64,000 nucleotides of DNA, taken from positions 23,261 through 87,260 of IMG/VR virus record IMGVR_UViG_3300009868_000003; one strand, given 5' to 3'. Below, piece after piece: positions 294 to 52,939 of this stretch. This DNA comes from a virus. Its lineage: Duplodnaviria; Caudoviricetes. The notes beneath the pieces are model-generated. The model was not told where the DNA came from. It did not search any database and saw only the letters and a list, made by a program, of their open reading frames with translations. Both the position numbers and the translations under genes were made by a program. Position 1 is the first letter of the stretch, and every line of letters begins with the position of its first letter.

Positions 294-1193
294 ATGAGTT
301 TTTTACGATTTTATGAAGAAATCTCTTCAATTCGTGGGTTTAATCCCGAAAAATACTTAGAAAATAAGGTCTATCTTATTAATGAGTTTTTCAAAAACGA
401 ACGGCGTGATTCGGTAGTTGTCGGAATCTCTGGAGGGATTGATTCTGCATTAGTTGTAAACATTTTTAACAAGGCAGCGCAAGCAAAAGATTCCCCTATC
501 AGAATGATAGTCGGTCTTATTCTACCTGTCTCAGGTTCAGGAACGACCGGTCAAAATAAAGCAAAAGACAAAGCATTAGAAGTCCTAAACAAAATACCAG
601 TTGCGTGTCAAGTGATGGATCTTTCACCAGCATATGACTCAATTGTGGCTCAAGGTGGAGGTTCAGCATGGGCACAGGGACAGATGGCCTCTGTATTGAG
701 AACACCGGCTTTGTATTATCAAGCAGCTCTTTTACAAGATGCAGGGTACCGTTCAATTGTATCAGGAACAACAAACAGGGACGAAGGGGCATATATTGGG
801 TTTTATGGTAAAGGTTCAGACGGTATGGTTGACATACAACCTATTGGAGATTTGCATAAGTCTGAAGTCGTCTTACTTTCTAAAATGCTAAATGTTCCGG
901 TTGAAATTCAAATCGCTCCTCCTGCTGGAGACGTATGGGACGGTCGTGTAGACGAACAGATGATAGGGGCACCATATTGGTTTATTGAATCGTATCTAAT
1001 AATGCTTGAAAAAGGAAGGTTTGACCTGTTAGAAATGTTAGGCCAAGAAGAAAGAACAAAAGCAGACCGATGGATGGAAAACATTGAAAAGATACACAAA
1101 ACAAATTTACATAAATATCAAGTCGGCCTTCCTGCAAGGTTTGTGGACGTAATTCCACGATGTGTCCCTGGCGGTTGGTCATCAAAACTATAA
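294..1193 (+). CDS. nadE: NH3-dependent NAD+ synthetase (NadE family)
   Basis: PP-loop VVGISGGIDSAL, GTTNRDEGAYIGFYGKGSDG, PIGDLHKSEV motifs; no glutaminase domain. Confidence 0.92.
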   Translation: MSFLRFYEEISSIRGFNPEKYLENKVYLINEFFKNERRDSVVVGISGGIDSALVVNIFNKAAQAKDSPIRMIVGLILPVSGSGTTGQNKAKDKALEVLNKIPVACQVMDLSPAYDSIVAQGGGSAWAQGQMASVLRTPALYYQAALLQDAGYRSIVSGTTNRDEGAYIGFYGKGSDGMVDIQPIGDLHKSEVVLLSKMLNVPVEIQIAPPAGDVWDGRVDEQMIGAPYWFIESYLIMLEKGRFDLLEMLGQEERTKADRWMENIEKIHKTNLHKYQVGLPARFVDVIPRCVPGGWSSKL

Positions 1194-1194
1194 C

Positions 1195-1980
1195 ATGGAA
1201 CTAATACAGACAAAACCAGACATGAGTAAGGTCCCAGGAGGATGGGAACCTGAGACCAATTTATTATTAAACGAATCATTCGGTCCTATCCATGAAAGAA
1301 AGCTTATAGATGAAACGTCAAAGGCAATAGTGTTTGACAATGTCCTGTCACCTGTTGATTCTAAAAAACTTAGAGACCTTTTTCTAAACTCTCACATTAC
1401 TGCACCTGTCTCTATTCAAGGAAGACAGGATGTTCCTGATGATAGAATAGGTTCGGTTAGAGCAACTGCATGGAGTCCATACCTGGCCGACCAGATTTGG
1501 TCAAGATTAAAGATGCATCCTCATTTTTCGTTAAAGTGGTTTATGATGGAAGACTTTGTTGCGACTGATTGGTGGCAAGAGGGTCCATTTAGAAAGTGGG
1601 AAGCTTTCGGAGTCTCCCCTATGTTAAGGTTTATGAAATACGAAAAAGGAGGCCAACATTATTCTCATTATGATGCAGGTTTCATTTATCCTGACCCTCA
1701 CTATCGTACTCTTAAGTCGATCGTGATTTATTTAACGACAAATGAAGGTTCAGGTGCGACTCGATTTGTAGAAGACGGACAGGGAAACCTTCCAGTTTGG
1801 GAAAGAGATCATCGTGACTGGACTCGTGAGACTCGAGAAGAAGAAATAATCACTCGTTCATACCCAATTGAAGGTTCGGTGCTTTCATTCAACCATAGGT
1901 TATGCCATGATGTTGAAATATTCAATGGACCTGGAGATAGGATAATAATTAGAGGAGACATAATATACAAAGCCATATAA
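1195..1980 (+). CDS. 2OG-Fe(II) oxygenase, prolyl-4-hydroxylase-like
   Basis: HYD (HxD), distal H in RLCHD, R in RIIIRGD, RFMKYEKGG, IVIYL..GATRF; start set at ATG 1195 just after the nadE stop (track starts 1162). Confidence 0.85.
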   Translation: MELIQTKPDMSKVPGGWEPETNLLLNESFGPIHERKLIDETSKAIVFDNVLSPVDSKKLRDLFLNSHITAPVSIQGRQDVPDDRIGSVRATAWSPYLADQIWSRLKMHPHFSLKWFMMEDFVATDWWQEGPFRKWEAFGVSPMLRFMKYEKGGQHYSHYDAGFIYPDPHYRTLKSIVIYLTTNEGSGATRFVEDGQGNLPVWERDHRDWTRETREEEIITRSYPIEGSVLSFNHRLCHDVEIFNGPGDRIIIRGDIIYKAI

Positions 1981-1981
1981 G

Positions 1982-3328
1982 ATGAATTGGAAAATTAAAC
2001 GAGACTATTTTTATTCAGAATTATATGAGGAGTTTGGCCTTGAGTGGATAGAGGACGCAGGTTTTTTCTTTGATTCATACAAAGAAAATTGGAATCTTGA
2101 AGACCATACAAAAATACAGTGCACTCCTATTAACTTTATGAGAGAATCATACTCTCAAGCAAAACGACCAATAGTCCTTGTCACAACAGGTTCTTTTTGT
2201 CCAATACATGACGGTCATGTTGAAATGATGGAAGTTGCTAAAAAGACTCTTACTAAGTATGGATGGGACGTGATAGGCGGTCTAATATGTCCGGACCATT
2301 ATGAGTATGTTTCATCAAAAGTTAAGGAAGGTTTTATACCTATTCACCAGAGGCTTGAATTAATAGAAAGAAAAGTTAGGGATAAAGGATGGTTGGCTGC
2401 TGACCCATGGGGAGGAGTTTTTGTTCACTGTGATGTTAATTTTACAGACGTCGTTAGACGCACTGAGCTCTATTTGAAACATTACTTAGGACCAAATGTT
2501 GAGGTTGCATTTGTGTGTGGAGCAGACTGTGCTAGGTTTATGAAGGCTTTTTATAAAAAAGGAATATGTGTTGTCGTCGGTCGTGGAGAGCATATGTCCT
2601 CTGCTAATTATTACTATCGAGAGTTTGGAGACATAACTAGGACTTTTTTAGTCGAGCACAATAATCCTTTGTCTTCAACTGAAGTCAGGAAGAACTTTGA
2701 CATTTCTTTTAAAATAAATCGAGCAATAGTTCGAACAGACTATTCAGGGGTAGAAACTGCAATCTTAATTCCGCATGTCCTTGACCGGTTTGAAAACGTA
2801 AAAATAAATGATGTCAAAGAACAGAGGCTTAGGTTTATGCAGACTCTTAACAGCTCAAACGTCATTAGTCTTGACCCTTTAATTCACTTAGGGCATAGCC
2901 TTGAGATTTCCAGATTATATGATTGTTTTGGAATGAAAATGTTAGGTTACACAAACAGACCAGGAAGTCCAGACCTTGAGACTCAAATAAGGCTTATACC
3001 TGACGGAAATTACGTTTTGTTTGATGATGACACTGCAACCGGCGGGACCTTAAGGTTTGCTCAAAAACTATTGGAAAATACTGGAAAGAAGATTACAGGT
3101 TACTTTACTCTTTCGCGTGCCCTTTCTACTGATGAAATAATAGACATCAGAGATTTTGTTAAGGGTAAGAAATTTTCAGGTTTAGTCGTCAAAGGAGCAG
3201 ACAATCAAGTTAAAAGGCTACCCTACCTTGACCCATATGTAAACATATATTCAAGAGCATCAATAAAGGATCCGGTAGAATTTTCTAAGAAGGTGACAGA
3301 AATCAATGAAAGTTTTGGTTACAATTAA
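1982..3328 (+). CDS. NMN/NaMN adenylyltransferase-like (NadD/NMNAT) domain fused to a C-terminal type I phosphoribosyltransferase domain
   Basis: GSFCPIHDGH (HxGH), FVCGAD, LSSTEVR in the N-terminal part; VLFDDDTATGGTL PRPP-binding loop in the C-terminal part. Confidence 0.8.
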   Translation: MNWKIKRDYFYSELYEEFGLEWIEDAGFFFDSYKENWNLEDHTKIQCTPINFMRESYSQAKRPIVLVTTGSFCPIHDGHVEMMEVAKKTLTKYGWDVIGGLICPDHYEYVSSKVKEGFIPIHQRLELIERKVRDKGWLAADPWGGVFVHCDVNFTDVVRRTELYLKHYLGPNVEVAFVCGADCARFMKAFYKKGICVVVGRGEHMSSANYYYREFGDITRTFLVEHNNPLSSTEVRKNFDISFKINRAIVRTDYSGVETAILIPHVLDRFENVKINDVKEQRLRFMQTLNSSNVISLDPLIHLGHSLEISRLYDCFGMKMLGYTNRPGSPDLETQIRLIPDGNYVLFDDDTATGGTLRFAQKLLENTGKKITGYFTLSRALSTDEIIDIRDFVKGKKFSGLVVKGADNQVKRLPYLDPYVNIYSRASIKDPVEFSKKVTEINESFGYN

Positions 3329-3337
3329 ATAATCAAT

Positions 3338-4258
3338 ATGAATTCTGTATTAAATTTTGCACAATGGACACGAGTCTTTGAAAACGAAGAAGAAATTCGA
3401 CAGATACTTCCAAATGAAATCAAAGAAGCGATTGATGGGTTAAACCGTACAGGATTCGGACCGGTCAAAATAAAAAGTTCAGTAAAGTTTTCAATACCTC
3501 TTTATTGGTTAATGGTTACTGAAACATCAGACCGAACCTTTGAATGGTTTAAGGAAGCATGTCAGTCGACTGAGTCATACATATATGACCCGATGTATTC
3601 CAAGGGAAAGCTTCACTATTTTCTTTTTAAAGAAGATATGCGGGACGCAATGCTAGCATATTATAAGAGGTGTAACGAAGACTATGTAAATCCCCTTAGT
3701 CTTGAAGGAAAAATAAAATCGCCTGATATCTATGTTGGACAAGAAGCTCTGCTTAAAACATGGGAAATAGCTAAAACTCGATTTTCAGGTGGTGATGACA
3801 TTGAGGGACAGTCTCATACTAATCAAATTATGGAAAAGAGGTCGGACATAAAGGTCTTTTTGGACGATGATCGACAGCCATTAGAGTGTGTTAAGTTAAT
3901 GAAAAATAGGTTAAACGATACATCATTATATGCTGACCCTGATTGGCTTGTGATAAGAACATATGGAGATTTTAAAAGATTTTTAGAGAAATATGGTGTT
4001 CCAAGACTAATATCATTTGACCATGATATCGCTCCACCTATTGAAAAAAGAGCAGAAGTTCCAATTGAGGACTGGTTTGACCTAGGTGAAAACAGAGAAT
4101 GGAATGGGGTAGATTGTTTAAATTTGCTTAAGGATTATTGTTTGGGTAATAACGAGAACCTTCCAGAGTTCCTTATTCACACTCAAAATCCTACCGGATA
4201 TAGAAACTTGTTAAATGACTTAAATAGGTTTAAAAGGTATCAGAATGAAAATAAGTAA
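3338..4258 (+). CDS. Unknown N-terminal domain plus C-terminal divergent receiver domain (cyclic-phosphate-processing receiver type)
   Basis: VFLDDDRQP, ISFDHDI, NGVDCL, IHTQNPTG motifs. Confidence 0.6.
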   Translation: MNSVLNFAQWTRVFENEEEIRQILPNEIKEAIDGLNRTGFGPVKIKSSVKFSIPLYWLMVTETSDRTFEWFKEACQSTESYIYDPMYSKGKLHYFLFKEDMRDAMLAYYKRCNEDYVNPLSLEGKIKSPDIYVGQEALLKTWEIAKTRFSGGDDIEGQSHTNQIMEKRSDIKVFLDDDRQPLECVKLMKNRLNDTSLYADPDWLVIRTYGDFKRFLEKYGVPRLISFDHDIAPPIEKRAEVPIEDWFDLGENREWNGVDCLNLLKDYCLGNNENLPEFLIHTQNPTGYRNLLNDLNRFKRYQNENK

Positions 4259-4748
4259 AAGTCATATTTTTATGTACGACCAATGGGATGGTTCGTTTGA
4301 GGGTGATGAGGTTAGGATAATATGTAATGTTCTAAATAAAAACGGCATAATTACTTCCCCTATTCCAATTCTTAAAGGGTTTTTTCATGTGTTTGTTCAC
4401 TCAGTCCAGGCAAACCTTGGAAACTACGTTAAGCCTGAGTCTCATATTCCAGTCATGTTAAGGCTTAAACAAATGGCTGTTTCTAAGAAATCATATTTAG
4501 ATAGGGGACAGACAGACTCTTATGTTGATTTTTTAGTCGAAGATGACTGTTTGAGTCTAACTGAAGAAATAAAGCACGGAATGACAAATGGTCTTCTTCC
4601 AGACTTCGAAGGTTGTTCAATAACTCATACTTTAAAAAAAATCACGGTAAACACAGAAGAGCTTAAAAAAATATTTAAGATTGCTACTGGCGGATGGGAA
4701 TCAACCGACGACAGATTAGGCTCTGTTTTTAGCGACAAGATCCTCTAA
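4245..4748 (+). CDS. hypothetical protein
   Basis: 167-aa ORF overlapping the upstream stop, operon-like. Confidence 0.6.
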   Translation: MKISKSHIFMYDQWDGSFEGDEVRIICNVLNKNGIITSPIPILKGFFHVFVHSVQANLGNYVKPESHIPVMLRLKQMAVSKKSYLDRGQTDSYVDFLVEDDCLSLTEEIKHGMTNGLLPDFEGCSITHTLKKITVNTEELKKIFKIATGGWESTDDRLGSVFSDKIL

Positions 4749-14209: not shown

Positions 14210-15289
14210 ATGATTAAAGCAGAAATTGTAGCTGATTCTATTAGCACGTTTAATAGAAGGATCACTACTATGGTCTTAACTTTTCCCAGGTATATCCTAG
14301 CGGAATTTAACACGCACCGAGCATTATCAAAAAATTCGGCATCGTCTAGGGCAATTCCATTCAATAAACCCAAACGACCGATTGATATGATGAGAATGGT
14401 CCAAAATAATCCATTTGTTCCATTGGCCTGGATGATAGACCATGAAGGAATGCAAGGAACAGAATACTTTACAGCTGAACAAGTAAATGGCCTATTATTG
14501 GTAGAAGATTGGCTCAAAGCTAGAACCTTGTTTTTAGAGACAGCAAAGAGCTTTCACGACAGAAAGTTAACCAAGCAAATAGTAAACAGGTTAATTGAAC
14601 CGTTCTTATGGCATACTGTTATAGTGACTGGAACCGAATGGGAAAACTTCTTTGCATTAAGAAATCACCAAGCGGCAGACATTCATATTCAGGAACTGGC
14701 AAAAAAGATGTTAGCTGCATATAATGATTCTACTCCTAAAAACCTTAAACCTGGGGAATGGCATATACCGTTTGGAGACAGGATAGATGAAGATAGACTC
14801 GTCAGAGAACTTGAACTTGACTATCAGCCATATGAAGATGGAACGACAGACGTTGACCACGCTAAAATTCAGATAGCGACAGCAAGGTGTGCTAGGGTAT
14901 CCTATGTGAACTTTGAAGGTAAGGATGATTATTTAGCAGACGTTAAATTATATAGGGATCTCTTAATCGGAGGTCACATGAGTCCATTTGAACACTGTGC
15001 TAAAGCTATGACTAGAGACGAATGGTTAAGATGGACAATTTCATATCCATACTCAGAAGACAAGTTTGATTTATTGAAAGAAGAAATAGGGGACCAAATT
15101 TTAATTCACGAAACAAGCAAACCTGATTCTAAACCTATTAAGATAATTGAACCAGGATGGTGTGGAAACTTTAGAGGTTTTGTTCAACTAAGAAAGACCT
15201 TTAATAATGAAAATAGAAAAGATCCTCGTGTGGTTCAAAAGAAGTATAATTGGAATACAAATGAAACGGTCGATCCAAAGTCTAATTAA
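14210..15289 (+). CDS. thyX: FAD-dependent thymidylate synthase
   Basis: AEFNTHRALSKNSASSRAIP (RHRx7SxR-type motif), NRLIEPF, ARCARVSY, HMSPFEH. Confidence 0.88.
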   Translation: MIKAEIVADSISTFNRRITTMVLTFPRYILAEFNTHRALSKNSASSRAIPFNKPKRPIDMMRMVQNNPFVPLAWMIDHEGMQGTEYFTAEQVNGLLLVEDWLKARTLFLETAKSFHDRKLTKQIVNRLIEPFLWHTVIVTGTEWENFFALRNHQAADIHIQELAKKMLAAYNDSTPKNLKPGEWHIPFGDRIDEDRLVRELELDYQPYEDGTTDVDHAKIQIATARCARVSYVNFEGKDDYLADVKLYRDLLIGGHMSPFEHCAKAMTRDEWLRWTISYPYSEDKFDLLKEEIGDQILIHETSKPDSKPIKIIEPGWCGNFRGFVQLRKTFNNENRKDPRVVQKKYNWNTNETVDPKSN

Positions 15290-28386: not shown

Positions 28387-29775
28387 TTATTTTAAGCCTT
28401 TAGCCATAGCTTCAATGTCTAATATGTGTTGTAAAGTATCTGCTGTCGTTTTATCCGTCCGTATTTCTTTATAGACCGGGTGAAGCAATGAATAATTACC
28501 CTCAGAGTCTTGAGAGACACCTGAACATTTTGTCTCGAGGATTGCTCCTTTAAGACTTTCTTGATTTTCAGTAATGTATTTCATTTCCTTCTCCTTTATT
28601 CCAGTCGGAGCTGTAAAAAGAAGTCCGTCTTCAGATACTGCTTCAACTGATGAAATGAGGTGTTCATTTTTCCCAGTTCCATACCTAAATCCGGTTATTC
28701 GTAAGTCGATTGTAATTTCAAGCTTAAGTTTTATTTGCCATTTAGGTTTACCATCCTTCCAGACCCCGTCTATTGACTTAAGAATGTTTCCTTCATACCC
28801 TAAATTTATGGTCTGTTGAAACAGTTTCATTGCTTCAGCATAGCTATTGACATGAGTCGTCTCTATTAGGGAAACCATAGTGGTCTGAGCATCACTTATG
28901 TATTTGGCAATGTTGTCTAACCGTTGACTGTATGGTGTGTCTGAATGTGCCCTGGTATATTCATCAAGTGTAATGGTGTCCCATGTCGTATAACGAATCT
29001 TACCTAAGGCTTCTTTCATTGACATACCATGTTCTTTTTCAAACTCAGCAAGCTCCTTAGTTACCTTCTTACCTTCTATGATTTTGGCATTTATTGTAAT
29101 AAGTGATGCAATTATTCCATTAGACTCATATCGGTTATACCCGTCCATTGTCAGTTCACCGTTAAGAACGCAGTCAGGAAACCGTTTAAGTTCCTCAACA
29201 AACGTTGCTCCTTCTAAGTATGAAGGTTCACCTCCACGACTTTCCATATTAACTATGCCACCCTCAATTATAACGTTTGCATACCGACCGTCCATCTTAA
29301 TCTGGGAATATGCACCATTTCCTTGAGCTAAGAGTTCATCAACCAACTTCTTAGAAAAGGCTTTTGCTCCCATATATGGAGTTTCCTCTATTAAACCTGG
29401 AAATATCTTATTGATGTTGGTGACCCCCATACCGATTTTACAGTCACGGTCGATTATCCTTTCAATAATATATGCATCATCAGGTGATAATGAAGACAAT
29501 ACAGTATGTAGGTGATTTAGTGCATCGTGACCCGTCTTTTCCCTTGAACTTAAAGGAGAAAGTAGATCCATTGCTTCATTTAGAGTCAGAGTAGGACTAC
29601 CTGAATTTTTAGGGTATTCTCCCATGTGTTTGATGTAAAATTTCACTCTAGGTGAATTAGCAAGGTATAATGCTCTTTTTAAGGTTTCATTTTCGGAATA
29701 AGACCGAAGGATGTCCATCTTTGCATTAGAACCGTTGTCTGATGATATATGGTCGAATATTTCTTTAACTGTCAT
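28387..29775 (-). CDS. lig: ATP-dependent DNA ligase (T4 gp30-like)
   Basis: QIKMDGRY (KxDG), LNGELT, EGNILK, IKLK; C-terminal OB fold. Confidence 0.92.
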   Translation of the reverse strand: MTVKEIFDHISSDNGSNAKMDILRSYSENETLKRALYLANSPRVKFYIKHMGEYPKNSGSPTLTLNEAMDLLSPLSSREKTGHDALNHLHTVLSSLSPDDAYIIERIIDRDCKIGMGVTNINKIFPGLIEETPYMGAKAFSKKLVDELLAQGNGAYSQIKMDGRYANVIIEGGIVNMESRGGEPSYLEGATFVEELKRFPDCVLNGELTMDGYNRYESNGIIASLITINAKIIEGKKVTKELAEFEKEHGMSMKEALGKIRYTTWDTITLDEYTRAHSDTPYSQRLDNIAKYISDAQTTMVSLIETTHVNSYAEAMKLFQQTINLGYEGNILKSIDGVWKDGKPKWQIKLKLEITIDLRITGFRYGTGKNEHLISSVEAVSEDGLLFTAPTGIKEKEMKYITENQESLKGAILETKCSGVSQDSEGNYSLLHPVYKEIRTDKTTADTLQHILDIEAMAKGLK

Positions 29776-36750: not shown

Positions 36751-37095
36751 TTAGGATTCTCTTTCTGGTTGTTCAGGTTGAGTAGGGGCAGGCACCTCGG
36801 CTGTTTGTTCGCTTCCAAGTGGAGCATTAGACAATGACATATCCTCTTCTCTCTTCTTATCAAGGTTTTCAAGCTCTTCTGGAGTCTTTTCCCTTTCTAA
36901 GTTAATTTTATGTTGAATATCATCATTCTTAAGCGGAAAAGATTTTCCACTTGGGTCTATTGCAAGGTATGATTGTGAAGTCGATTCGACTCCAATAATG
37001 TTAACTAATCTTCCATCCTTGAGGCGTACTCTATCCCCTCCCTTATATTTACTAGGACGTAGGTCTAAGAATGCGGACTCATAGTCCTCAAACAT
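36751..37095 (-). CDS. hypothetical protein, SH3-like N-terminus
   Basis: YKGGDRVRLKDGR..I pattern. Confidence 0.55.
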   Translation of the reverse strand: MFEDYESAFLDLRPSKYKGGDRVRLKDGRLVNIIGVESTSQSYLAIDPSGKSFPLKNDDIQHKINLEREKTPEELENLDKKREEDMSLSNAPLGSEQTAEVPAPTQPEQPERES

Positions 37096-38675
37096 TAGTT
37101 TTTTTTAGACAGATCTAATGCAACGTATTTATTCTTAAGGGAAACTAAGCTTTTTTGGATGCTTTCCTTAAGAGTAGTAAGATGATCTAGAACATCAGGA
37201 GTTATATCTGGGTTCTTGAGAGCCTCGGAGATTTTAACCTCAGACTGTTCAAGTTTTGCAATATCGGTTTCAATTGCTCTCTTCTCTTCATCAATAATAA
37301 ATGCGGTCTCTTCTGCTTCACTTAGTTGTATTGAATACAGATCCCTAACATCGTATTGGAATTTTTCAAGAACATATATATGGAAACCTACTGGACTAAC
37401 CTTTACGAACTTATCGCTAGTTGTTGTTCCTTTTTCCATCACAAAAACCTTATCCTTAAACCCGATTGCATATGATTCATTTGCAAACTGAGTGTTTCTA
37501 ATCCTTTTTACGTTTTGAAGGTTTACAATTTGAGAAAGACCTTCAAAGAAATCAGCAAGATTTTGACGAACGTTTGTTGACTCCATCATTCCAATCTCAG
37601 TAACATTAACGTTTTCAGGTTCAACCTTAGACCCTGCTATAAATACTTCAACGTTTCCTGATTCATTTGTCTTAAGGCTTACCTTAACATGACGTGTTCC
37701 GGTTGAAACGAATTTTCCTTCTATTTCTTTAAATCCTAAATAATAAAAAGCTTCACATACTTTTCTAAAAGATTCTGGAAGACCTTCGTATTCTTCCTGC
37801 GAAATTAAATCAGGGTCGGTCTCTTCCTCTTCTCCTTCAATTTCTTCGTCTTCTTTGATAACATACATCTTACTGTCGACAAAGAAATAGGATTTATTTT
37901 CATTTTTCATGAATGGGCTAATAACGTCGGAAACGGTGGTTGCACCAGAACCTATACCCATATCAAATCCACCTTCGCCTTGAGCTTCATACATTTTAAG
38001 AGCATTAACAAGACGATTCACAACTGCAACATTCTTAAAATCACGGAGTCTCATAGAGATAGCAGAAGACGTTGTTTCGTCCTTTTCAAGACACTCTTCT
38101 AACACTAAGCACAGATTCTTATAAATTAAGTTGTTAACTCTTTCAAGCTCAAAAATAGTGTCAGCTATCATAAGCTTTGGTTTATTCTCTTCAAGGAATA
38201 CCTTGGCTTCTGTTACGACCTCTTTAATGTCTGCGTCATAGACATAGTTTTCGAAAATCCTAATAAATGGAACCAGAGATTTGAATTCTGGTAAAACCGC
38301 GATAGCCTCTTCTATTTTATCACAGCTTCCCTTTACAATTGGATCCTTAGATGCCTTAGACCCTTTAACCTTCTTAACTTTATCCTTAAGACCAATTGAA
38401 CCTAACAGTTTCTTGGTCTTTTTCTTAGGGGTATTAAACAGTTTTTCTTTTTTGTCTTTAACTAGGTTCTTTATAAAGTTTTTCTTTTCACCAACGAAGT
38501 CGCTTAATGCTTCTAGGTTATTTAGAAGGCTCTCGTACACTTCATCTGAGTCGCTGTTAGTGTTAACAACGTTCTTAGCACCATCCAAATACATTTTTAC
38601 TACTGGGTGGTTAGCCAACGTTTCATCAGATTGAAGTTCTAATATTAATTCTTGAGTCATTCCTGCCATTGCCAT
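37095..38675 (-). CDS. putative structural protein with C-terminal coiled coil
   Basis: 526 aa; late-like motif upstream; morphogenesis context. Confidence 0.6.
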   Translation of the reverse strand: MAMAGMTQELILELQSDETLANHPVVKMYLDGAKNVVNTNSDSDEVYESLLNNLEALSDFVGEKKNFIKNLVKDKKEKLFNTPKKKTKKLLGSIGLKDKVKKVKGSKASKDPIVKGSCDKIEEAIAVLPEFKSLVPFIRIFENYVYDADIKEVVTEAKVFLEENKPKLMIADTIFELERVNNLIYKNLCLVLEECLEKDETTSSAISMRLRDFKNVAVVNRLVNALKMYEAQGEGGFDMGIGSGATTVSDVISPFMKNENKSYFFVDSKMYVIKEDEEIEGEEEETDPDLISQEEYEGLPESFRKVCEAFYYLGFKEIEGKFVSTGTRHVKVSLKTNESGNVEVFIAGSKVEPENVNVTEIGMMESTNVRQNLADFFEGLSQIVNLQNVKRIRNTQFANESYAIGFKDKVFVMEKGTTTSDKFVKVSPVGFHIYVLEKFQYDVRDLYSIQLSEAEETAFIIDEEKRAIETDIAKLEQSEVKISEALKNPDITPDVLDHLTTLKESIQKSLVSLKNKYVALDLSKKN

Positions 38676-38691
38676 GAGGCTTATTTTGATT

Positions 38692-38699
38692 TATTTATC
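38692..38699 (-). promoter_or_regulatory. late-like promoter GATAAATA
   Basis: 16 nt upstream of start 38675. Confidence 0.5.
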
Positions 38700-38704
38700 C
38701 AATT

Positions 38705-40675
38705 TTAACCAGTTTGAATGTTAGTTATCTTAGATAGTTTAGCATTCAATGTGTTTTGGAACCTTGCCTTGTTTGTTGGGTCAAACTTTAACAATATTGC
38801 ATTGTCTGGGCTAGCCTTAATACTTATGTTTTCGTTATCCTTAGCTTGTTGAAGCTGGGCTTCCAACTCAGCAACCTTATTTCTTAAGTCTGCTATTGTT
38901 TCTAAATTATCCTTTTCTGTCTGATATATCGAATTTACTTCATCTCTATCATCTACACTATACCATTTACCTGAATAAAATGATGTTTGGGTTCCGTCTG
39001 TTGCTATTGATATTAAGTGAAAGTTATTATCATTGGACTGAAGGATTTTCTTAGAATCATCTTTAGTGACTTTGAATAGGATTTCGCCTAGACTAGGATT
39101 AGCCTTAGTCTGATCATTAATACTTTCAACAGTGACCTGGCCATCACTTGTATTAAAGACAAGGCTTAATGAAGAATTAAGGTTTAGATCCATCGGTTGA
39201 ATAACATCAGCCACACCTGGTTTTGTTATTTTGGTGTAAACCTTAAACTTAAATATGTTGTCAAAAGGTTTAACAACTATGGGCAGTTTTCCTTGACCGA
39301 ATGCGATGACATCATTGGTGTCCTTAACTGTCACCATATGACTTTCTTCAGACACCGCTATATTCTGAGATTCATAAAACATTGGAACAAATTGAGTAAT
39401 GGTTGTGCCAACACTTGCAGTAGTGGTATTCGGAAGTATTGTGCTCGTAGTATTGCTAGGTCCTATAAAAAGAAGGGTAGAATCAAAGTTCTTTTTGATT
39501 AACTTATTGTATATCTTTTGAGACTCAGGGAGATCTTTAAGCTTAATAGAAACTAAGTGAGCCCCATACTTATTAGGATTTAAAACAACAAGTGAACCTG
39601 ACCTTATTATTTGGTCTCCATTATTTTGATTAAGAAGTCTTACTGTATAATCAATTGTCATTGAGATTGCTTCTTCTGCGTGTTCCAATATTGGTCTAAA
39701 TTTCTGCGGAGCATCAAAATTATCAGTTTGATATTGCACCAAATTAGCCGTCTTTATGAATGATGTTCCTACCTGTTCATATACTGTCAGTTGATGAATT
39801 AGAATCCAATTTTCGCCAGTCCTTGTATTTAAGACTGAAATTAGTTCCTCTGGGAATCCGCTGTTCCATGTGGCAAAAAATTCAATATAATCACCGACTG
39901 TCGATTCCTGAATATGAACTCCTAAATTATCAAATTCGTTTACCTGAACAACATCTGTTTCAAAATGTCGAACTGTGTTAAAGATTTCATACTTAGTATT
40001 ATTTGTTACCAAGTCAGGTGCAGGAGTACACTCATCTAGAGATATTGAAATTGGGCTGTTTTGGATAAACCCTATTCCATCAGTTATTTGATAAGCAAAA
40101 GTTGAGGGCCTGTTTGATGAAGTGTAAAATTCTTCGTCTATGCTTTTAAGGGAAGGTATTGTGATCTCAATATACCTGTCATAAGAAGAGTCCCTTAGAA
40201 AAATAGGTTTAGGGTTAAACGTTAAAAGATATTGCGAAGTCAGTTGATCTAACAAAAGACATGCTAATAAACCAGTCCTCTCATCGGTTAGGTTTTGTTT
40301 TATTGAGAAAACAAGCTTTTGAACTTCGCTAAAATTAAAACCTGTTGCAAAGTGAATTCTTACCTTATCGACTACTGGATTATACCCCGCTATTAGTGAT
40401 TCAGAAACGGTCGTGTCATATAATGTATAGTTAGGAATCTTCTCTTGGTCAAGGTAAACGTATTTTCCTCCATCAAGTGGCATAACCGTTAAATCCTTAA
40501 CGTTTTTAGTTGTGTATAAATATGCGTCCTCATTATAAATTTGGACGGTAGAATCACCACGTTTGGTTGCAAAAAAAGGAATATTTATAATTTGAGTAGA
40601 ACCTAGCGGCTCCATCCTGTATTCAACAAGACAGTAATCAGTAAGGCTTACAAATTTAATTATACCAGTTGCCAT
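38705..40675 (-). CDS. putative structural protein
   Basis: 656-aa beta-rich ORF in morphogenesis region. Confidence 0.6.
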   Translation of the reverse strand: MATGIIKFVSLTDYCLVEYRMEPLGSTQIINIPFFATKRGDSTVQIYNEDAYLYTTKNVKDLTVMPLDGGKYVYLDQEKIPNYTLYDTTVSESLIAGYNPVVDKVRIHFATGFNFSEVQKLVFSIKQNLTDERTGLLACLLLDQLTSQYLLTFNPKPIFLRDSSYDRYIEITIPSLKSIDEEFYTSSNRPSTFAYQITDGIGFIQNSPISISLDECTPAPDLVTNNTKYEIFNTVRHFETDVVQVNEFDNLGVHIQESTVGDYIEFFATWNSGFPEELISVLNTRTGENWILIHQLTVYEQVGTSFIKTANLVQYQTDNFDAPQKFRPILEHAEEAISMTIDYTVRLLNQNNGDQIIRSGSLVVLNPNKYGAHLVSIKLKDLPESQKIYNKLIKKNFDSTLLFIGPSNTTSTILPNTTTASVGTTITQFVPMFYESQNIAVSEESHMVTVKDTNDVIAFGQGKLPIVVKPFDNIFKFKVYTKITKPGVADVIQPMDLNLNSSLSLVFNTSDGQVTVESINDQTKANPSLGEILFKVTKDDSKKILQSNDNNFHLISIATDGTQTSFYSGKWYSVDDRDEVNSIYQTEKDNLETIADLRNKVAELEAQLQQAKDNENISIKASPDNAILLKFDPTNKARFQNTLNAKLSKITNIQTG

Positions 40676-52589: not shown

Positions 52590-52939
52590 GGGCTTGACTG
52601 GTTTTGACGTGATATTGACTGGTAAACCCGCACACAGGAAGTGATAAGTGATTCCTTAATCCACATTTATCGAACATAAACGCAAACACAACTATCTGGG
52701 ATGTATTCAACATGGTTGAAGCTCCCGTAGCTGACGAAGCTGTTCTTGCTTAATAGCCGAACAAAAGAAGGGGTGACCCCTGGCAGATGAGGTCAACGAC
52801 ACTAGAAGGTATCTAGGGTAGAAACTTTCTCTCAACCACAGAAGAGAAATTGTTTGTCAGTTTCGAAAAATTGACTAAGTGTGTAGAAAGTTTATTATTC
52901 GTACTTGCGGACGTGGGTTCAAATCCCACCAGGTCCACC
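52590..52939 (+). ncRNA. ssrA: tmRNA encoding the tag (A)ANTTIWDVFNMVEAPVADEAVLA
   Basis: Acceptor stem GGGCTTG / CAGGTCC with G3:U70 and discriminator A; T arm GTGGG-TTCAAAT-CCCAC; ATAAAC-GCA resume context at 52682; TAA TAG stops at 52751. Confidence 0.93.

Follow-up and report, generated by a model that had tools for sequence, protein, structure and literature searches.

Depletion of nicotinamide adenine dinucleotide (NAD+) is a major strategy of bacterial defense against phages, and three phage pathways that reconstitute NAD+, NARP1–3, have been described since 2024. Here, a trio of adjacent genes is analyzed that is predicted to encode an NH3-type NAD synthetase (NadE), a 2-oxoglutarate (2OG)- and Fe(II)-dependent dioxygenase, and a fusion of a nicotinamide/nicotinate mononucleotide (NMN/NaMN) adenylyltransferase (NMNAT) with a type I phosphoribosyltransferase (PRTase). 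The trio lies in a 64,000-nucleotide stretch of viral DNA, hereafter the window, which corresponds to bases 23261–87260 of the 87 kb IMG/VR virus record IMGVR_UViG_3300009868_000003 (CheckV completeness 34%).

Among the closest described systems, the Preiss–Handler pathway (PncB, NadD, NadE) was reported as a jumbo-phage gene cluster (PMC11662467). NARP1 is composed of Adps and Namat, NARP2 of a phage NAMPT and an NMNAT (Osterman et al. 2024, bioRxiv 10.1101/2024.02.11.579819), and NARP3 of a PnuC-like transporter and a NadR-like kinase/adenylyltransferase (PMC13464706). A further route, leading from NaMN through NMN to NAD, is that of NadE* and NadM in Francisella (Sorci et al. 2009, as cited in PMC7824862).

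A system of NadE, oxygenase, and NMNAT/PRTase was found neither in the NARP1/2 preprint and its follow-ups, nor in the NARP3 paper (PMC13464706), a 2026 review of phage counter-defense (PMC13728456), or the Aravind-lab surveys of jumbo phages and viral NAD+/ADP-ribose (ADPr) systems (PMC7824862, PMC9503650). The same literature, together with PMC11662467 and PMC13384950, contained no type I PRTase–NMNAT fusion, no NadE–oxygenase fusion, and no such trio. The description of Xanthomonas phage X1 (PMC13384950) and a survey of "NAD-jumbo phages" (PMC11662467) only list auxiliary genes of the nadD/nadE type. The module is thus apparently undescribed in published work; coverage of the literature was incomplete, and its novelty is therefore unproven.

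The Three Genes and Their Domains

The original prediction, made from the sequence of the window, described three genes spaced 1 nt apart and carrying NadE, oxygenase, and adenylyltransferase/PRTase motifs. Both the spacing and the motifs were confirmed, the open reading frames (ORFs) being located at 294–1193, 1195–1980, and 1982–3328 on the + strand. The start of the oxygenase was placed at the first in-frame ATG within the ORF 1162–1980.

The product of the first gene scored above the cut-offs of both family models applied, Pfam PF02540 NAD_synthase (E 3e-31; 108.7 bits vs. 21) and NCBIfam TIGR00552 (106.1 bits vs. 63.65). Its PP-loop SGGIDS aligned, within GISGGIDSA, with PDB entry 2e18 from Pyrococcus, the closest solved relative, followed by 3fiu from Francisella. 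On the basis of the PP-loop and the curated family score, the protein is predicted to be a genuine NadE. Orthologs with 37–50% identity adjoin the oxygenase in many loci.

The second product reached 21.7 bits in Pfam, below the gathering threshold of 27, which indicates a divergent member of the 2OG-Fe(II) dioxygenases; the comparison with phrog_81 yielded E 1e-7. In an alignment of 30 homologs, H158-x-D160, H234/H238, and R249 were invariant, as were about eight arginines and a TDWWQ motif. The AlphaFold2 (AF2) model (mean predicted local distance difference test, pLDDT, 92) displayed a double-stranded β-helix (DSBH) closest to viral, bacterial, and algal prolyl-4-hydroxylases (P4Hs), with matches to vCPH and BaP4H at E of about 2e-7; small-molecule and nucleoside oxygenases scored nearly as high. 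Profile comparison matched the P4Hs of B. anthracis and Chlamydomonas (E 1e-3). Judged by its metal-binding triad, R249, and modeled DSBH, the protein is predicted to be a 2OG-Fe(II) dioxygenase of the P4H-like clade. The many invariant arginines and the aromatic TDWWQ motif would suit an anionic or phosphorylated nucleotide as substrate.

In the AF2 model of the fusion protein (pLDDT 91.8), residues 44–245 adopt the fold of a eukaryotic-type NMN/NaMN adenylyltransferase. The best match was 9iw1 (Z 18.9, root-mean-square deviation (rmsd) 2.9 over 194 aligned residues; Foldseek E 1e-10), the top 10 structural matches were all NMNAT or NadD, and phmmer comparison with plant and human NMNAT gave E 9e-9. 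The motifs CPIHDGH (HxGH), SPxHDxY, VDPW, CGxD, and SSTxxR (SSTEVR in the window) are conserved in the fusion homologs. On TIGR00482, the domain obtained 37.3 bits, below the curated equivalog cut-off of 112.45; it is therefore divergent and should not be called an ortholog of bacterial NadD. The label NadD given to it in the original prediction was accordingly replaced by that of its nearest relatives, the eukaryote-type NMNATs.

The C-terminal domain (residues 246–448) carries a phosphoribosyl pyrophosphate (PRPP) loop, LFDDDxxTGxT, which is invariant among homologs of 25–73% identity, along with many charged residues. In the model, the loop YVLFDDDTATGGT is situated at strand E343–351 and runs into helix H355–365. 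The domain profile matched APRT in the PDB with E 3e-4, and among the matches listed nearly all were type I PRTases or their relatives. Fold similarity was moderate, the scores being Z 7.8 for HGXPRT (136 residues, rmsd 4.2), 7.5 for OPRT, and 7.4 for a purine PRTase. In Pfam PF00156, the domain scored 13.9 bits vs. a threshold of 26.3 and only 6 of 18 homologs produced a match (best E 2e-5), so that it represents an unclassified branch. Given these moderate fold matches, it is best regarded as a putative divergent type I PRTase.

An exhaustive profile search for this domain family returned 1237 cluster representatives at E ≤ 1e-3 and 448 at E ≤ 1e-30. It also lists forms of ~220 aa, some of which may be fragments; a word-indexed search for short stand-alone relatives found none. 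Variant architectures were observed as well. In P0212 (705 aa), NMNAT and PRTase domains are followed by a C-terminal GNAT acetyltransferase, and in P0224 (825 aa) about 260 residues without assignment follow the PRTase domain. In a 391 kb IMG/VR phage, a lone in-frame TAA followed by an A run interrupts the NMNAT–PRTase linker (L009:10745-10747), which could reflect a split gene, a sequencing error, or recoding.

Conservation of the Trio as One Unit

NadE, the oxygenase, and the NMNAT/PRTase fusion form one system, as established on four independent lines. Gene neighborhoods were compared in 20 distinct fusion-bearing loci with 10 kb flanks, collected from IMG/VR, ENA, Logan, and NCBI, in which all ORFs were clustered. 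The fusion proteins of these loci were 28–48% identical to that of the window. Besides the fusion, the sole recurrent families were NadE and the oxygenase, each present in 14 of the 20 loci; the next family occurred in only 5, which excludes a background of synteny. Three gene orders were observed (NadE-Oxy-Fus, Fus...NadE-Oxy, and Oxy-Fus-NadE), and in one phage genome (G003, 90% complete) the NadE-Oxy pair was located just beyond the flank limit. The NadE-Oxy-fusion arrangement was also recovered in loci seeded from oxygenase homologs.

The fusion was further detected in 19 loci of metagenome-assembled genomes (MAGs) within a species-representative genome collection. A contiguous NadE-Oxy-fusion arrangement was found in 13 of the 19, at GC contents of 40–78%, and four further MAG loci end at a contig edge directly after Oxy-Fus. 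No flanking family was common to the MAG loci. The co-occurrence of the three genes is far beyond chance, and both chance adjacency and inherited synteny were ruled out, since no other family of the flanks is conserved.

Direct fusions of the same domains were also found. Among 150 listed members of the PRTase family, at least 11 were 1048–1208 aa long, and four long proteins were compared with Pfam. In three of them, the PRTase domain was preceded by NadE, 2OG oxygenase, and NMNAT; in the remaining one, P0273, NadE and NMNAT were recognized. For one such protein, P0241, encoded without interruption by a single ORF of a phage-like contig, the identities to the window's NadE, oxygenase, and fusion protein were 41%, 37%, and 32%, respectively, and the domain order is that of the window. 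Proteins with oxygenase, NMNAT, and PRTase also exist, as do bacterial NadE–oxygenase fusions of about 565–590 aa. The four domains are therefore functionally linked to one another, with intact catalytic motifs, and the earlier claim that the three genes form one system was upheld by the 14 non-syntenic loci and by the four-domain polypeptides. As a separate observation, two more oxygenase genes of the PhyH family lie directly downstream of a 1208 aa four-domain gene (L031:9617-11355).

Fusion loci in IMG/VR were recovered by an alignment-based scan, and the genome-collection scan was performed with an alignment of closer fusion homologs (set A4). An IMG/VR pattern scan from a single protein gave no match, and comparison of the window genes with 50,697 GenBank phages by megablast and tblastn gave none for the fusion; the full-length homolog in phage X1 (WEM34357) was recognized only by profile comparison. 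The ESM Atlas provided family-level leads only.

Distribution and Relation to Canonical NAD Genes

The module was found at GC contents of 21–78%, including in uncultured jumbo phages of 170–480 kb. Variants are also present in cultured phages. In Xanthomonas phage X1, the protein WEM34357, annotated as "hypothetical", is a full-length homolog of the fusion (hhalign 99.1%, E 4e-19). It is encoded in the order fusion-Oxy-NadE, followed by two hypothetical genes, NadM (NMNAT-Nudix), one hypothetical gene, and NAMPT; a 380 aa X1 neighbor was tested as a PRTase and is none. Xanthomonas phage BUDD carries an adjacent oxygenase–NadE pair. Acinetobacter phage ME3 has a split variant consisting of the oxygenase, a stand-alone PRTase-like protein, NadE, and an adjacent Macro-domain gene; ME3_297, considered as a split NMNAT, proved not to be one.

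The original prediction described a phage operon, but the module is not phage-specific. Several MAG loci with the trio lie on clearly bacterial Myxococcota chromosomes, where NadE and the oxygenase are often fused. MAGs can hold mis-binned phage contigs; the bacterial context was confirmed by annotation for two Polyangiales loci (L046 and L053), whose flanks contain an epimerase, YicC, a Ser/Thr kinase, a CDP-alcohol transferase, a Na+/H+ exchanger, and a cation efflux pump. Two other MAG loci with a GC content of 41% (L039 and L040) appear phage-like. Among sampled Polyangiales genomes, 4 of 121 contain the module, which indicates an accessory, mobile cassette. A recent host-derived housekeeping operon was rejected as an explanation, as the GC content of the trio (0.378) matches that of the phage, its closest relatives were located on phage-like contigs, and the module is this sparse in Polyangiales. 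At ~3 kb from the module on one Polyangiales chromosome, a gene for a BrxC/BrxD-like ATPase was noted (L046:12223-14268), possibly a defense-island context.

The proposed connection with NAD was borne out by gene neighborhoods, the trio adjoining NAMPT or NadM both in phage X1 and in L039, on whose 179 kb contig a NAMPT-type gene lies 2 kb upstream. Canonical NAD genes were also identified elsewhere in genomes carrying the module. A complete phage genome (G005, 100%) has a NAMPT-type gene beside another NMNAT, and G001 has a NAMPT-type gene. In the 417 kb phage G003, PncB (442 bits) adjoins a second, canonical NadE (L029:2993-5489, i.e., G003 36993-39489), and a short NadD-like HIGH nucleotidyltransferase is encoded nearby, which gives a full Preiss–Handler set besides the trio. 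The Myxococcota genomes with the module (G006–G008) contain canonical NadD and several NadE paralogs; type II NAPRTase-family matches were only weak there (23–27 bits), so that the type I domain could be the pyridine PRTase of these bacteria. Within the 87 kb record, 34% complete, PF04095 gave no match.

In most cases, the module is thus accompanied by canonical NAMPT/NMNAT or PncB/NadE, and since genomes with the module also own canonical NAD genes, it represents an add-on and not an alternative or replacement.

Proposed Function and Alternative Explanations

With a probability of about one half, the trio constitutes a self-contained cassette, mobile by horizontal transfer, for the synthesis of an NAD-type dinucleotide, and this product is most likely NAD+. 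From the domains and their linkage, we infer the substrates, the sequence of steps, the oxygenase reaction, and the anti-defense role set out here. The C-terminal type I PRTase would join a pyridine base, most likely nicotinate, with PRPP to form a mononucleotide, which the fused NMNAT domain would convert with ATP to a deamido-dinucleotide; NadE would then amidate this product to NAD+. The direct fusion of PRTase to NMNAT suggests channeling from base through mononucleotide to dinucleotide, and the presence of NadE suggests an intermediate bearing a carboxylate (deamido form).

The Fe(II)/2OG oxygenase would contribute an oxidation obligatorily coupled to this route, acting either on the base or on one of the nucleotide intermediates. 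It may make the base (by oxidative N-dealkylation or hydroxylation), convert an intermediate, or tailor the product. Its in-line fusion to the remaining domains favors a metabolic reaction, and the union of the four activities in single polypeptides suggests that this step is part of the chemistry. In phages, the cassette would constitute a second, deamido branch beside NAMPT/NMNAT salvage of nicotinamide, and it would maintain NAD+ in the course of infection and in the face of NADase-type defense. PncA and PncC deamidate nicotinamide or NMN, and a deamido branch would be useful where the host possesses these enzymes.

Several points weigh against this assignment. To our knowledge, no type I PRTase uses nicotinate or nicotinamide, and we know of no canonical NAD route in which such an oxygenase has a role. 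By profile and fold, the oxygenase is nearest to protein prolyl hydroxylases, and the stand-alone PRTase-like protein of ME3 has a degenerate PRPP loop. Moreover, canonical genes co-occur with the module (NadD and NadE in G006–G008, PncB and NadE in G003, NAMPT and NMNAT in G005 and X1). If the PRTase simply made NaMN, there would be no need for the module's own NMNAT and NadE, and this favors non-canonical intermediates.

The retention of a dedicated NMNAT and NadE beside the housekeeping copies is the best argument for a non-canonical intermediate or product. It is somewhat doubtful, but plausible, that the cassette makes a non-canonical NAD analogue, for which a modified pyridine or another base would be ribosylated, adenylylated, oxidized by the oxygenase, and amidated by NadE. 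Such an analogue would function as a cofactor resistant to NADases, as a decoy or inhibitor, or as a signal. Four activities kept together where canonical NadD, NadE, PncB, or NAMPT is already present would be expected if the housekeeping enzymes rejected the intermediates; the in-line fusion of the oxygenase, its invariant arginines and TDWWQ motif, which would suit an anionic nucleotide, and the separate, divergent family of the PRTase domain point in the same direction. The counter-argument is that selection on a mobile, self-sufficient cassette, by horizontal mobility alone, would also retain NMNAT and NadE. In addition, NadE scores above the NCBIfam nadE cut-off, the NMNAT domain retains every NMNAT motif, the module is set within ordinary NAD salvage clusters, and we know of no precedent for such a product. 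In a broader form, it may tentatively be proposed that the product is either an oxidized or hydroxylated NAD-like dinucleotide or NAD+ reached through non-canonical oxidized intermediates. This would involve new type I pyridine PRTases and a nucleotide-directed oxygenase, and would provide jumbo phages and some bacteria with an NADase-proof cofactor, decoy, or signal.

An improbable explanation is that the PRTase-like domain is a non-catalytic sensor of PRPP or nucleotides and the oxygenase a protein hydroxylase, the module then boosting NMNAT and NadE under metabolic or oxygen control. The nearest solved relatives of the oxygenase, protein prolyl hydroxylases including the EF-Tu-modifying P4H, would be consistent with this, as would the presence of the PRTase-fold sensors PurR and PyrR among the profile matches listed and the degenerate loop of the ME3 homolog. 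The full PRPP loop and the many charged residues, invariant despite the divergence of the homologs, argue against a sensor; the PRTase domain is fused to an enzyme that would consume its product, and the four-domain polypeptides resemble a metabolic assembly line. It is very unlikely that the trio serves NAD+-dependent RNA repair or ADPr processing together with its cREC neighbor rather than bulk NAD+ supply. The cREC domain is predicted to process ADPr or RNA cyclic phosphates (PMC7824862, PMC9503650), a gene with this domain follows the trio in the window, and some related loci hold Pol-beta nucleotidyltransferases, a fusion of RNA ligase with a HIGH nucleotidyltransferase, or HAD_SAK_2 or Macro genes. 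However, conservation with the trio was seen neither for cREC nor for the other RNA-repair genes, the commonest extra family being the one in 5 of the 20 loci, and a cREC gene stands beside the trio only in the window. In X1, the weak match is a small cREC-like ORF about 4.5 kb upstream of the trio (L034:2175-2501; tblastn E 2e-9).

Under the preferred interpretation of a route to NAD+, the module would be a fourth, mechanistically different branch of NAD rebuilding, bringing a new PRTase family and an iron/2OG oxygenase from outside any known NAD route. The oxygenase step points to either a new entry into pyridine nucleotide synthesis or a new NAD analogue. Its occurrence in bacterial chromosomes suggests a role in general metabolism as well as in phage weaponry, and the variants in the cultured phages X1, BUDD, and ME3 make the proposal directly testable.

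Neighboring Genes and Other Features of the Window

The genes of the trio belong to a + strand block of five genes (294–4748) with spacers of 1, 1, and 9 nt and a final overlap of 14 nt (Table 1). In a promoter and terminator scan, signals were at or below the shuffled expectation. GC content across the window was uniform, at 0.34–0.39.

Table 1. Coordinates of the features identified in the window.
Feature	Position	Strand	Basis or remark
NH3-type NAD synthetase (predicted NadE), 299 aa	294..1193	+	Pfam, NCBIfam, PDB matches
Predicted prolyl-4-hydroxylase-like 2OG-Fe(II) dioxygenase, 261 aa	1195..1980	+	Invariant motifs, phrog_81, AF2 fold
NMN/NaMN adenylyltransferase domain of the fusion, residues 1–245 including conserved N-terminal extension	1982..2716	+	
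Putative divergent type I phosphoribosyltransferase domain of the fusion, residues 246–448	2717..3328	+	PRPP loop, profile, fold
306 aa protein, N-terminal half without family and cREC domain	3338..4258	+	Pfam PF20274 E 2e-15
167 aa protein, last gene of the + strand block	4245..4748	+	No family above threshold
ThyX-like thymidylate synthase	14210..15289	+	Weak Pfam Thy1 match
ATP-dependent DNA ligase	28387..29775	-	
tmRNA, tag peptide ANTTIWDVFNMVEAPVADEAVLA	52590..52939	+	ARAGORN call

The part of the cREC gene without a family comprises 170 residues. Neither this gene nor the 167 aa gene had a homolog beside the trio in loci L002–L022, and for this lack of conservation neither was accepted as a component of the system.

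Near the trio in 5 of the 20 phage loci, a Pol-beta-superfamily nucleotidyltransferase of about 205–250 aa was observed (L003:4973-5689, L014:11437-12195, and three others), and L002:12862-14793 encodes an RNA ligase fused to a HIGH nucleotidyltransferase. These genes hint at an RNA-repair theme around some copies of the trio.

The genes of the record include a large terminase, a baseplate wedge protein, an ATP-dependent DNA ligase, an endolysin, and a tmRNA, which together identify the window as a fragment of a large tailed phage. As the ligase uses ATP and not NAD+, DNA ligation is not an obvious consumer of NAD+ in this fragment. SmpB is encoded close to the trio in a related locus (L024).

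Comparison with Known Systems

The proposed chemistry resembles that of the Preiss–Handler pathway, in which a base and PRPP yield a mononucleotide that is adenylylated and then amidated by NadE. In contrast, the PRTase of that pathway is the type II enzyme PncB, for which the 87 kb record (34% complete) had no PF04095 match, while that of the trio is a predicted type I domain fused to the adenylyltransferase. The adenylyltransferase also differs, being NadD in the former and eukaryote-type NMNAT-like in the latter, and the trio adds the Fe/2OG oxygenase as an obligatory member.

In the Francisella route, the similarity concerns NadE. The window protein belongs to the short NH3-type subfamily, and its likeness to 3fiu suggests that amidation could occur at the mononucleotide level. 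As cited in PMC7824862, this route involves neither a PRTase fusion nor an oxygenase.

With NARP3, the trio shares the principle of one bifunctional polypeptide that would both make the mononucleotide and adenylylate it. NadR, however, couples a P-loop nicotinamide-riboside kinase to NMNAT, whereas the trio couples a PRTase domain to it. No transporter was linked to the trio, with no search aimed at PnuC, and NadE and the oxygenase are additional to the NARP3 scheme.

The trio had been predicted to be unlike NARP1 and NARP2, which proved correct with respect to its type I PRTase domain, NadE, and oxygenase. Like NARP1, it would rebuild NAD+, and Adps has a fold of the PRPP-synthetase/PRTase type. 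However, neither a two-domain PRPS-like Adps nor a NAMPT-like Namat was found in the window (PF04095 being absent from the whole incomplete record), and the one PRTase domain of the trio carries a classic PRPP loop and is joined to NMNAT. With NARP2, it shares a phage-borne, PRPP-dependent route with an NMNAT step, and it adjoins NARP2-type genes in X1 and L039. The NMNAT domain is present in the window; no NAMPT was recovered from the 87 kb record at its 34% completeness, and related phages carry NAMPT besides the trio. NARP2 uses the type II enzyme NAMPT and needs neither NadE nor an oxygenase; the trio is an extra branch and not a version of NARP2.

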